The translations under genes were made by a program, and so were the position numbers. 64,000 nt of DNA from Cladosporium halotolerans (taxonomy: Eukaryota), in the NCBI RefSeq assembly GCF_011745625.1, contig NW_027191468.1, positions 372,001 to 436,000 on the forward strand, written 5' to 3'. Within the stretch, counting starts at the first letter, position 1. Each line of letters opens with the position of its first letter. Positions 19,881 to 24,424 of this stretch are shown here, in pieces. The notes beneath the pieces are model-generated. The model did no database searches. It was not told the origin of the DNA and saw only the letters and a program-made list of their open reading frames with translations.

Positions 19881-20154
19881 GCTGAAAGATCGTCCATGTT
19901 GTAGCAATAGATTTTTAAGCATGCACAAGCATGAGACACCAACTCGGCCCTGGGGGTCAACAAAACTTATAGTCATGTGAAAATGAGGCTCGCAGATTCT
20001 TGTAGTGCCTTGATCGTCTCCATATTCCCACAGCCAATCTTGCCGTAGGCGGTGTATCTTATTATCTAAGTCCGTGTCGTACGGTAGGCTCAGCTACCCT
20101 AGAGGCATGCCGCTCTAGCAGGTTCTTCAACTCAGTCTCACGCCCGAGCTCTCA

Positions 20155-21269
20155 TCACTCAATATCCATTTCATCCCCACCCTGTCCTCTGCTCTTGCGA
20201 TCCTCAGCCCTCTTCCGGGTAGTCGCCCTCGCGTCCTCCACCCACTTGTCATAACTCCCATCCTTGACCTTAGCGGCGGTCACGCCTTTCATTGCTTCGC
20301 CAATGAACCCCACAAAATTATGTCTCCTCAGCGCATTCTCCCACCGCCACTCCCTCCGCTTCCTCTCCTCGCGCTCCAGCATCTCCTGGTCCCCAATCGC
20401 GCGCGCCTGCACTCTCAGATCCTCGCACATGGCCAACAAGTTGAACCGAATCTCGGTCTGGGGGTATCGAGCGATGCGGCTCTGGAGGACAGGGACGACT
20501 GCGTCGGCGAAGATCTCGCGGGGACACGCGCCGACGTCGCCGTGTCGGATCGGTGCGGGCTGGAGGCCGTCGAGCTCGTAGAGAGTGCTGTTGATCGAGG
20601 TGTATGCGATGAAGTGGTAGACGTCGTCGTCTTCGGTCGCGACTCGCGACTCGTCGCTGATGAAGGGTGAGCTGCGCGCGAAGGAGTTGTGGGTGTCGCG
20701 GATTAGGTCGGAGTTGGAGAGGGCTTCGCCGCGGAGCTGTTGTGGTTTGGTTAGCTGCCGAAGCGAGTTGATGTGTCTCAAGTCAACAGGGTGTACTTAC
20801 ATCTGAGGGGAAGGCAGATGTGAAATCCTTGAACTCCCTCAAGGTTGGGCCGATGTCCACATTGCCATCTTCCGAGCTTCCGTCCTTGTTGAGGAGCACG
20901 CTCAAAAGAGCTTGTGTGCCGCATGCATTTTGGATCGTCTGAGCCGCAAACCACACGTTCTGTTCTCCCTGTGCTTCTATCGCAGCGAAATCAAACTCGC
21001 CATCTTGAGGCTTATCTTTCTGAGGCTTCTCGCCTGTTGGGTATTTGAAGAGGAAGATTACACCGATCGGGTTGAGTTGCTGAAGCGATTCTGCGTCTAG
21101 CGACACGAGCTCTTCGAATTGTACATTCTTTGTGCCGAGTGATTCAATAAGATATGTGAAGACGCCCTAAAGGTGGAGTGTTAGCTTGCAGATCTAGGAA
21201 TAGCAGGCGGACTGTTAGCGTGAGTATACTTGCAGCATCCGACTCGATCGTGTTCCAGCCGCCTGACAT
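20155..21269 (-). CDS. UCH37: Ubiquitin C-terminal hydrolase UCH37/UCH-L5 (peptidase C12); exons 21269-21234, 21166-20801, 20736-20155 (327 aa); first intron GC-AG
   Basis: WNTIESDA|GVFTYL, QTIQNACGTQA (catalytic Cys), YHFIAY, LYELDGL and the C-terminal ENALRRHNFVGF ULD tail. Confidence 0.93.
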
Positions 21270-21532
21270 TATCGTGGTGGTATGTCTGTCGCCGATCAAA
21301 GATGAAGTCCGGTTCACTCCAAGTAGGATCTCAGGCGTCTTGCACTTGTCACGGTACGTTCGACTGGCGCAAACTAACCTTCGCAATCCAGTAGCGTTTC
21401 ACTTGGCCGCGGTGGTCGCGCGAGGAAAACGTCATCAGAGCCAAGAAACGTCCATCTCCGAAACCAGGCAAGATCACGCCTCGCGCCTGCATTCCCAATT
21501 GCATCACACGCCCGTTGCACGCCGAGCTAGCA

Positions 21533-22615
21533 AGTAAGAGCTATCTGCCCCATCCCTTCCGCTGCGCGCATATTTTCACCGCACTCACCAACACCACCTT
21601 TTGTTCAAAGTGTCTTCAGATACCCTCGAGTTCCTCCGTCGGCCAAACAGCGCCGTCGACCTCCCTACATCAACACCAGCCGCGGAAGCAGCTCCTGCAC
21701 CCGCACCCACACCTGCAGCTACAAAACCAGAGCCTGTGCCAGCACAAGAGCCTGCACCTGAACCCGTAGCAGCTCCCACTCCGGCACCAGTCGAACCCCT
21801 TGCTCCCAAGCCCTCGGAACCAGCTCCCGTCCCAGCGCAAGAGCCCCAGTCCAACGGTGCTCCTGTCGAAAACAAGCCGGAAGAACCTCAACCCGCCGAA
21901 CCCCAAACCGACAACATGAGCTACGCAGACGCCGCCTCCAAGGGCCCCAAGCAGACCGACGAGGAGAAGTAAGCTCGTCCCCGAAGCCTACCGCCCTCGC
22001 AGCAAAACCGTACACTAACATCGCCCTTCAGGATGCCCGACTACGTCCCCGAGATCGCGCACGACGACAGCGGCGTGCACTCGCTCGACTCGCTCGACAG
22101 CACGCACATCCAGTCCGCGCCCTCCTTCGCGGACCAGCAGCTCGAAGCCGAGCGCGCCGAGGAGAAGGCCCGCGAGGCCGCGAAGGCGACCCGCGAGGAG
22201 GCCGAGAAGGCCGCCAACAAGGCCGAAGACGAGGCCAAGGACTACGCCCGCAAGGCTGAGGCCAAGGCCGAGGAGCTGAAGAAGAAGGCCGGCGTCCAGG
22301 GCAAGAAGGCCAAGGAGGAGGCGAAGGAGGCCGAGGAGTGGGCGGAGAAGAACAAGGGCAACCCCGTTGTCATTGGCAACGTTGTCGCCGTTGCTGCCCT
22401 CGGTACTCTCCTTGGTGTTGGCGCGTACAGGAAGTACAACGCCCAGGAGCTTACCTGGAAGGTCGCTGGCGCTTGGGCCGGTGTTGTTGGCTTGTTTGCT
22501 GTTGGTGACTACTACGTCAGCCAGTAAGTGATGTTCACCTTCAATGTTTTTTGCAAGAATTCCGCTAACATATTACAGATGGCTCTTCAAGAACCGCTAC
22601 CCGCCGAAGAACTAG
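21533..22615 (+). CDS. OM14-like mitochondrial outer-membrane protein. Long form: 21533 + 21611-21968 + 22032-22523 + 22579-22615 (295 aa). Short form from ATG 21916 (193 aa)
   Basis: MSYADAASKGPKQ start motif, Ala/Glu/Lys coiled coil, two C-terminal hydrophobic segments (NPVVIGNVVAVAALGTLLGVGAY; WKVAGAWAGVVGLFAVGDYYVSQWLF). Canonical introns at 21969-22031 and 22524-22578. Family assignment is from memory. Confidence 0.75.
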
Positions 22616-24424
22616 ACTGAGCCTCATTTCACAAGCTCAATCTTCGAACCGACAGTTTCCCTGGATGATGATGCAACTCAGCTCTTTCTTTGCGGCAGGT
22701 CGTCTCAAGGCTTTTCGGGTTTGATACATATGCGTTTGGGGTAGTGCCATGATATCCAACACCTTACAAGAGGCAGAGTGTCCAGGGTGGGGGGTTAAAT
22801 TGTATGATATATCTTCTCTCCGAATGACAGGGTACGATCTCCTTTCACATCATTTTGATCTGAGCGAGCCACGCTCGTGCTCCCCGTGAAGCACTGTTTC
22901 CCGAGGCAGGCGGCCGATACAAGCTTGTTGGCACGGGCCGCAGTCTATTTGGACAACGAATGTGATCAATGAGACCTTTAACACATCTGCAACGTACTTT
23001 GCTCTATGCCAAAAAAATCTGGTTATTGCATGTGATATCATGTGATATTTCATCCTGCCTTAAAACCTTCTGTGGGGCCAGTCCACGGTAAGGGACTGCG
23101 ACATCCTGAGATTGACTGAAGAAGTGGGTCAAACCATCCAATTTGTCTATGGTGAACCACAGTGTTTCAACTCGATCGAGAAAAAATCGTCCGTTGGCTG
23201 TGGAGGATACCTTGGTATTGATACTGACACAAACAACTTCATTGCTATGCTCCTGATCAAATACCATGTACATAAACACGCATACCGTCTCACTACAAAA
23301 CACCAATAAGACCCCAGCCCCACCGCCTCGCAAGGCCTGCAAAAGAAGCCTACCCATCGCTCCGGCAACAAAACAATCAAGATGATGCGGCACTAACGCA
23401 GTACAATCAGCCGCAGGCCGAGGCGCAGGGAGAAAAATTGTGGTTGGGCGGCAACGGGGCGCGGCTGAGCTAAGGGGAGCGGAGGGCTGCACGAGGCGAA
23501 AAGGCGGTCGCCCACTTGCCGCAGGGGCGGTGATGCTGCGGCACCGGCTGGGTGTGGGTGGGTGCAGGTGGCGAGAGGGCTTCGAGAAATTTTGTCCGCC
23601 CGCGCGGTCGGGCTGGTTCTCCGTCGGCTTTTTTGTGGTCAGCGGTCTGGGGACTTGTGATTTGCGGGATTGATCTGTTGCGGGTGAAGGGCGATTTGGC
23701 AGGAACAATAGTGAAGGTGGTGATGTTGGTGGTTTATTTGATCGCAATATTATCTCAGATTGCCTTGTATTTCGATGCCGGCTTGTCCGCATGCAATCAG
23801 CCTGCCGTGTCACAGATTACGGGTTGCGATTGATCGTTCAAACGACAGATGTCCGATTAGTCTCTCCATCAACACGACCGTGAAGACTTGCAAACGGTCG
23901 CCGCCACTCACCACCTGAGGCATTCTAGAACGACGCTTGGAGCAATAACTGACCCGGCTAAGCACCTGGGTAGTGAGCGTGGGCAGACAGCCAGGCAGGC
24001 CTCCGTCACGTGACGCGACGCTCACCGACGGGCGGTGTCACTGCTGTCGTGAGTGCTTTTGACTTTGCGATTGGACCCTTTGTTGGTGGCGCTAGCGCGC
24101 TGAGAACTCTTCCTCAGCAAGAATGGACGCCCGCGCCGCATAAATCACAGGCAATTCGACTGTTCACAGCAACTCCTTCTCCTCCTACGCACTCCTCTCC
24201 CTCCTTCATCCTCCCTGCATTTGCTTCTCCGTTTTGCCTTGCGTCGGTGGCGCACTAATTCAAAAGCGAGCCGATTACATTCGACCCATCCGAAGCGCGT
24301 CCCCACGAGAATTTTGCAAGCGGGGCTAAGAATTCGACACTCTTAAATTACACCCCTTCCGCCCTCGCACAGTCTTCCGACACCCACCCACCCCTCTCTT
24401 CCAAACCCCTCAGAGTCCGACAAG

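Follow-up and report, generated by a model that had tools for sequence, protein, structure and literature searches.

A conserved N-terminal extension with a proposed GTG start in an OM14-like gene of Cladosporium halotolerans

In a stretch of 64,000 nucleotides (nt) from the fungus Cladosporium halotolerans (hereafter the window; NCBI RefSeq assembly GCF_011745625.1, contig NW_027191468.1, positions 372,001 to 436,000 of the forward strand), a three-exon plus-strand gene lies in the region of about 21300-22700 and encodes, from its ATG at 21916, an OM14-like product of 193 amino acids (aa). Here we describe an N-terminal extension of this protein that would be translated from the non-AUG codon GTG at 21610, with leaky scanning to the AUG at 21916 giving the short form; we put the probability of this reading at roughly 0.55. 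Judged by comparison with relatives, the 101 upstream codons are truly coding in this clade. A preliminary description of the locus had proposed a splice-controlled switch between a 295-aa and a 193-aa isoform. The pair of long and short forms remains plausible, but splicing as the main source of the long form's start codon is not supported: the proposed intron is kept in all four assemblies of messenger RNA (mRNA) type and lacks the branch motif YTRAY.

Conservation of the extension and of its start

The upstream frame has clear counterparts in related fungi. A search with P0001, the translated upstream frame plus exon 1, retrieved 1 + 6 open reading frames (ORFs) on contigs of relatives, each covering 97-100% of the query. 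A metagenome scan found 20 loci, 14 of which (L001-L013 and L019) hold the whole extension, while L014 is cut by its contig end and L015-L018 and L020 match only the MSYAD exon. Together with the window, the 14 loci form a comparison set of 15 sequences, 13 of them distinct (L006 and L007 are identical, as are L012 and L013). Synonymous divergence (dS) between the window and its relatives is around 0.9-1.4, so that they represent well-separated species.

The pattern of change across this set is that of a protein-coding frame. Nine distances occur between the homologous start and the MSYAD ATG (225, 252, 255, 276, 282, 285, 294, 297, and 306 nt), all multiples of 3, and the segment just 5' of the GTG, 60-88 nt long in the relatives, follows no such rule. 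Pairwise differences at codon positions 1, 2, and 3 number 1748, 1284, and 3313 in 8677 codon comparisons. The ratio of nonsynonymous to synonymous divergence (dN/dS, NG86) lies between 0.11 and 0.44 in 26 of 28 pairs among eight of the 15 sequences, the remaining two pairs being saturated. Close to the N-terminus, L, E, F, L, R, P, and N do not vary and define the motif LEFLxRPN. Purifying selection acts on the extension in the reading frame of the main ORF, as is expected of a non-AUG N-terminal extension, and on the strength of the relatives' frame and the dN/dS values the preliminary description was right to take the Pro/Ala/Glu-rich frame for a real coding part of the protein. The Pfam search of the extension, LEFLxRPN included, found no family. 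When an ORF for the long isoform joined to exon 2 was sought in the protein size range 210-2000 aa, the sole match was P0003, a genomic read-through ORF.

One codon of the extension shows a pattern of its own. The third codon is always NCA (TCA, GCA, or ACA) in L001-L013 and in the window (21613-21621), with S, A, or T as the residue, and it keeps the triplet CAG at +7 to +9 in 13 of the 15 sequences. This pattern could reflect a constraint at the nucleotide level, on an alternative acceptor or on the initiation context, and not at the protein level.

At the homologous start, GTG is found in all 15 sequences, with A at -3 and A at -1. Homologues outside the clade were collected with exon 2, which matched 168 proteins in a profile-free search (E<=0.001) and 260 in a word-indexed search (E<=1e-20); 51 of them were examined in sequence, and by their source names the family lies in Dothideomycetes. 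Long forms are annotated in five genera. That of Aureobasidium starts M-S-L-EFLQRPNS (MSLEFLQRPNSD...), the motif being followed by a Pro/Ala/Thr/Glu-rich stretch of around 70-85 residues and then by MSYASVAASGPQQ. The long form of Hortaea werneckii starts MSTPAGLLGRPNS (MSTPAGLLGRPNSDSD...), that of Elasticomyces elasticus MASPTGLLHRPNS (MASPTGLLHRPNSEED...), and that of Cryoendolithus antarcticus MASILDRPNS (MASILDRPNSIEDL...), and Zymoseptoria tritici has ..MSSPNQLLHRPNT (...MSSPNQLLHRPNTDND...). In a joint alignment, the annotated methionines of these long forms occupy the same column as the GTG of the window's clade; that the outgroup genes carry a contiguous ATG there is presumed from the protein annotation. 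As the GTG occupies the very position of the extension's ATG in related genera, a change from ATG to GTG in the ancestor of the clade would be the simplest history. The signs of purifying selection arose after this loss of the ATG, since all 15 sequences already share the GTG. The closest named protein among the homologues, from Polychaeton citri (62% identity), is annotated as the short form. Its model, like the short-form models of several further Dothideomycetes, begins at MSYAD and misses a conserved extension some 75-100 residues long.

The surroundings of the codon fit a near-cognate start. An in-frame stop lies upstream of it (TAA 21535-21537), 21305-21915 contains no plus-strand ATG, and the GTG with its A at -3 is conserved. 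Leaky scanning to the AUG at 21916 requires a leader free of AUG, and in all 15 sequences the stretch from the GTG to the downstream ATG holds no ATG, whichever the frame. From composition, 1.4-2.3 ATGs would be expected per sequence, with a probability of none of 0.09-0.23 each; as the 15 sequences are related, the AUG-free leader gives modest, not strong, support.

The lack of an ATG and the open frame had first been noted from the window alone. The claim that no plus-strand ATG occurs between 21302-21304 and 21916 is borne out, and the frame before ATG 21916 is indeed open, though over 126 codons instead of the 105 given, because the in-frame TAA sits inside the donor-like hexamer GTAAGA. 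The ATG-free stretch 21305-21915 (611 nt) has a probability of 0.004 in a composition-matched shuffle, and the 614-nt spacing of ATG 21302 and ATG 21916 is the longest on the plus strand of the window, although two spacings on the minus strand are longer (667 and 658 nt). Across 21611-21915 each of the six frames is almost open; in composition-matched shuffles the 101-codon frame stays open in 12% of trials and the 305-nt extension remains ATG-free in 13%. These chance levels from the window alone are weak, and the significance of the observation arises only through the comparison with relatives. The second-longest ATG-free spacing on the plus strand, 498 nt, falls in exon 2 (22033-22531), bounded by ATG 22033, the first codon of that exon, and by ATG 22531, just inside the next intron.

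Transcript assemblies and the proposed intron

Four sequencing runs (X1-X4) were compared over 20000-23000, and the type of each run was judged from the behavior of its contigs. X2 and X4 are transcript-like, with contigs lacking both introns of this gene and both introns of its divergent neighbor. X1, which consists of short contigs carrying intron 2, and X3, a single 7964-nt contig across the whole stretch compared with 81 differences, have the character of DNA from related strains and were set aside as uninformative on splicing. In X2, record 13 (1216 nt) covers 21520-21968 without a break, followed by the two downstream joints; in X4, record 16 is unbroken from 21233 to 21634. Complementary DNA (cDNA)-like contigs were also sought among 15 metagenome loci (L001-L014 and L019), and two were identified, L002 (1136 nt) and L009 (1242 nt). 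Both have lost introns 2 and 3 and keep the homologous upstream segment. Their ORFs run continuously from the GTG to the normal stop (281 and 291 aa, respectively), with no ATG before the MSYAD ATG and an in-frame stop 5' of the GTG.

The proposed intron is retained in all four mRNA-type assemblies, which come from at least three species, and the GTG is present in mature mRNA (X2, X4, L002, and L009). Efficient splicing of 21534-21610 is therefore excluded, and the segment is most likely 5' leader because it is retained. Neither of the two junctions on which the splice switch would depend, 21533^21611 and 21533^21620, was found in the assembled contigs of the four runs. The 5' ends of the mRNA-type contigs lie 14 (X2), 7 (L002), and 0 nt (L009) upstream of the GT, which hints weakly at a transcription start at the "donor" or just 5' of it and at a first exon of a few tens of nucleotides at most. 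One X4 contig (1914 nt, depth 39; records 16-18) has only 30 bases, 21605-21634, in common with the locus and then runs into unrelated sequence that resembles the beginning of a different ORF; a chimeric read path may underlie it, or a 30-mer shared elsewhere in the genome.

The sequence elements named in the preliminary description are all present. A21533 precedes the donor-like GTAAGA at 21534-21539, after ...GCTAGCAA; CTCAC occupies 21584-21588, TG at 21611-21612 comes directly after AAG at 21608-21610, and CAG occupies 21617-21619. Joining A21533 to T21611 gives ATG TCT TCA GAT ACC... (MSSDTLEFLRRPN) in frame with ATG 21916, 303 nt or 101 codons lying between. The segment accordingly has the boundaries of an intron that splits a start codon, namely GT...AG, an exon that ends in A, and TG as the first bases past the AG, and its 3' end is AAG in seven sequences and CAG in eight. 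A branch site of the usual form and an exon-exon junction in the assemblies are both lacking. All 11 copies of intron 2 and all 8 copies of intron 3, the two confirmed introns, carry YTRAY (CTAAC, CTGAC, or CTAAT) at 10-16 nt from the 3' end. The candidate segment was extracted from 11 sequences (L005 was missed by the pattern and L003 is too short), and only one of these, L019, has YTRAY within 30 nt of the 3' end, the window offering CTCAC alone. By these sequence features, 21534-21610 is a poor intron.

Initiation at GTG and the alternatives

We propose that the mature mRNA would start near 21500-21530, keep 21534-21610, and have no introns removed but 21969-22031 and 22524-22578. A minority of the ribosomes that scan this leader would initiate at GTG 21610, with its A at -3, and produce the 295-aa long form, and most would scan 305 nt without meeting an AUG in any frame until AUG 21916, from which the 193-aa short form would be made. 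The additional 102 residues would form a disordered Pro/Ala/Glu-rich tether tipped by LEFLxRPN. The ancestral change from ATG to GTG may have turned the long form down, not off.

Several observations weigh against this account. GTG is among the weaker near-cognate codons, and the base at +4 is T (A in L019) and not the favored G. A hairpin 3' of the GTG that might boost near-cognate initiation was considered and rejected, as the minimum-energy folds of six sequences have in common just a stem of 4-5 base pairs containing the GTG itself, with nothing at +14 and no conserved hairpin 3' of the codon. A further objection is the geometry of the leader. A/GTAAGR (the slash marks the would-be boundary; R is A or G) is kept in the window and in all 11 close loci whose sequence extends to the site (not counting L009, whose first letters are GTAAGA, and L003, which is too short), 60-88 nt 5' of the GTG in the relatives and despite a dS of around 0.9-1.4 to the window, and AG stands right before TG in 15 of 15 sequences. 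The preliminary description had named conservation of the split ATG as a check, and in this respect it fared well. As sequence, A/GTAAGR...AG/TG is exactly what a split ATG would need, and it is not predicted by initiation at GTG. Moreover, assembled contigs drop rare variants, and a spliced form whose first exon is shorter than the assembler's word size yields a short dead-end branch of the kind that de Bruijn assemblers prune.

Apart from these points, GTGTC...GATAC at 21610-21624 of the window can form a stem of 5 base pairs that takes in the GTG and recurs in several relatives, probably as a mere consequence of the V-S-x-D-T codons.

The geometry can be accommodated if the splice model is weakened, so that 21534-21610 is a real but inefficient and possibly regulated intron. 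A minority of transcripts would then join A21533 to TG 21611-21612 and carry an AUG with a purine at -3 for the long isoform, retention would leave the short form only, and use of the CAG at 21619 would remove the start. We consider this version doubtful. Beyond the paired donor-like and acceptor-like sites with their interior of 60-88 nt, it would account for the exon-side base being always A, for the G or A at -3 of the composite AUG, for the absence of ATG from the block at 21500 to the donor in the window and the relatives, and for the maintenance of CAG at +7 to +9 although the residue varies among S, A, and T. Fungal introns in which the 5' splice site is inside or immediately after the start codon are also known, with 42 listed for Yarrowia lipolytica (PMC13309789). 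Against it, the joint is absent from the contigs of every run, the segment is kept in assemblies from which the other introns are gone, and YTRAY is missing where 19 of 19 control intron copies have one. The contig ends 0-14 nt 5' of the GT weakly hint that the first exon would be very short or nonexistent. The most distant sequence, L019, keeps the GTG but offers only A/GTACCG or A/GTACTC, both without G at +5. Finally, the 100 nt 5' of the GTG consist of alternating conserved blocks, TGCATCACMCGCCC, CAGCAGTAAGR, CCCATCCCTCTT, and ACACAAGCCAACC; the GTAAG block is therefore not uniquely conserved, and with its non-coding neighbors equally conserved it may belong to a promoter or leader element. 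A bolder form of the same idea, in which A/GTAAGR...AG/TG is a deliberately weak intron without a branch consensus, its regulated removal assembles an AUG from a single base of the 5' exon and two bases past the intron and so switches on the long isoform over a basal level from the GTG, and the arrangement holds clade-wide in Dothideomycetes, seems to us rather unlikely as well. Initiation at the GTG and a minor spliced AUG are not mutually exclusive.

Two further readings would do without both the GTG and the split ATG. The extension might no longer be translated in this clade, only the 193-aa form being made and the frame persisting as a relic or as a conserved RNA or DNA element. The lack of an AUG, the chance of around 0.12 that the frame is open by composition, and the short-form-only annotation in P. 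citri speak for such a relic. However, indels that only ever preserve the frame, the excess of third-position differences, and dN/dS of 0.11-0.44 are difficult to reconcile with it, and no Rfam family matches 21250-22050 at E<=1, so that we hold it to be very unlikely. Alternatively, the long form may begin elsewhere, at the near-cognate codons CTG 21562 or TTG 21601, which are in frame and 3' of the stop at 21535, or at the ATG of an unrecognized upstream exon. This appears most improbable: 5' of the GTG the relatives show indels that are not multiples of 3 and no conservation of amino acids, the outgroup proteins begin exactly at the methionine homologous to the GTG, and the nearest upstream plus-strand ATG (21302) is separated by 33 nt from the start codon (21269) of the divergent neighbor, a gene of the opposite strand, and lies beyond it.

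Gene layout, product, and known systems

The features of the locus are listed in the table below.

Table 1. Positions of features at the OM14-like locus, in window coordinates.
Feature	Position	Strand	Remarks
Conserved block TGCATCACACGCCCG	21500..21514	+	20-33 nt 5' of the donor-like site; candidate core-promoter or transcription-start-proximal element
Donor-like A/GTAAGA	21533..21539	+	Contains the in-frame stop TAA 21535-21537
Proposed 77-nt intron	21534..21610	+	Kept in mRNA assemblies; most likely 5' leader
GTG near-cognate codon	21610..21612	+	Context ttcaaaGTGtct, A at -3; proposed long-isoform start
N-terminal extension, 101 codons, SSDTLEFLRRPN...	21613..21915	+	Pro/Ala/Glu-rich; frame kept in relatives
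Short-isoform AUG (MSYADAASKGPKQTDEEK) and end of exon 1	21916..21968	+	Donor joint 21968->22032 in X2 and X4
Confirmed intron, 63 nt, GTAAGC...CTAAC...CAG	21969..22031	+	GT..AG joint in X2 and X4; CTAAC 13 nt from the 3' end
Exon 2, charged helical region and two hydrophobic helices	22032..22523	+	Homologues; best Pfam match OM14_C, below cut-off
Confirmed intron, 55 nt, GTAAGT...CTAAC...CAG	22524..22578	+	GT..AG joint in X2 and X4; CTAAC 10 nt from the 3' end
Exon 3 (..WLFKNRYPPKN)	22579..22615	+	Stop TAG 22613-22615; same C-terminus in the cDNA-like ORFs of L002 and L009
Divergent neighbor, ubiquitin C-terminal hydrolase (Peptidase_C12)	20155..21269	-	ATG 21269-21267; Pfam E = 4e-30; introns spliced in X2 and X4

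The block TGCATCACACGCCCG is near-invariant in the window and in the nine loci that reach that far, the distant L019 included (L002 is too short). The head-to-head pairing with the Peptidase_C12 hydrolase is kept in 8 of 9 loci examined, with the two starts 309-400 nt apart. The promoter shared with the hydrolase gene (21300-21533 in the window) holds conserved blocks, one of which is an ACGTCA(T/C) element around 110 nt 5' of the donor-like site in the window. In the relatives, a 3-codon mini-ORF, ATGCCCGCATGA, lies approximately 60-70 nt 5' of the donor-like site; it is absent from the window. Within the hydrolase gene, the joint of the minus-strand intron 21163-21233 is placed at 21165 in X2 and at 21163 in X4, and X4 has two replaced letters there, which fits strain differences at a single junction.

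For the C-terminal hydrophobic region, Pfam gives OM14_C (PF17304) as the top match for the window protein and for six of eight homologues scanned. The score of exon 2 of the window is 15.3 bits against a gathering cut-off of 26.1, the full cDNA ORFs of the relatives reach 13.9 and 14.8, one homologue (P0216) reaches 26.3, and five others lie between 16.8 and 23.7. Several homologues are named "OM14 C-terminal domain-containing protein" in UniRef. Because the scores fall below the cut-off, "OM14-like" denotes resemblance and not demonstrated membership. An AlphaFold2 model of the long ORF of L009 is of low confidence, with a mean predicted local distance difference test score (pLDDT) of 52.9 and a predicted template modeling score of 0.19. 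At this low confidence, it places hydrophobic helices at residues 227-252 and 258-286 after a long charged helix. Residues 1-95, at pLDDT 36-46, are predicted to be unstructured save for a helix at 5-9 over LEFLQ. The N-terminal motif, which belongs to no Pfam family, is worth functional study.

The protein bears some likeness to Om14 of Saccharomyces cerevisiae, a mitochondrial outer-membrane multi-span protein that reportedly serves as a receptor for cytosolic ribosomes (PMC4268710), in that its C-terminal hydrophobic region finds OM14_C as its best match. It differs from the OM14 family in its sub-threshold score and in LEFLxRPN and the Pro/Ala-rich tether, which match no Pfam family. A literature search, limited to OM14 in connection with both the mitochondrial outer membrane and the ribosome, found no N-terminal extension of OM14-like proteins.

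The proposed mode of translation has a precedent in cpc-1 of Pezizomycotina such as Neurospora crassa, for which conserved N-terminal extensions begun at non-AUG codons have been described as subject to purifying selection, the key context positions being A at -3 and G at +4 (Ivanov et al. 2017, mBio, PMC5487733). As in cpc-1, an open frame precedes the annotated AUG, purifying selection acts on the extension in the main frame, and a near-cognate codon with A at -3 is conserved in position; that one mRNA gives long and short products here is our proposal. Unlike in cpc-1, sister genera here have a normal ATG at this position, which points to a clade-specific replacement of ATG by GTG and not to an ancient non-AUG start. 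The present leader also has no upstream ORFs, its +4 base is not G, and its start is a prediction from sequence comparison. With a seemingly clean clade-wide change from ATG to GTG at a conserved start, a coding sequence still under selection, and a leader free of AUG, the locus may be a natural case of isoform-ratio tuning through start-codon strength.

In Y. lipolytica, the 42 introns mentioned above carry the 5' splice site immediately behind one of the letters of the ATG (A, T, or G) and are reported as the most efficiently spliced class (NAR 2026, PMC13309789). Among the literature searched on split start codons and introns in start codons, this was the only relevant natural fungal case found. 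As in those examples, A/GTAAGA...AAG/TG would put an intron inside the start codon, and the geometry is conserved in relatives. Unlike them, the segment here is retained in all four mRNA-type assemblies and lacks the branch motif of the lineage. Four transcript assemblies contradict a split-ATG geometry that looks perfect and is conserved; splice-like motifs conserved close to a transcription start are therefore insufficient grounds for calling an intron, and the locus serves as a warning and a test case for intron calling.

In conclusion, introns at or inside start codons and non-AUG extensions are kinds of feature already known. What appears to be new is an overlooked, motif-tipped extension on an OM14-like protein whose start has seemingly changed from ATG to GTG across a clade; new as well is the conserved splice-like geometry that the transcript assemblies contradict.

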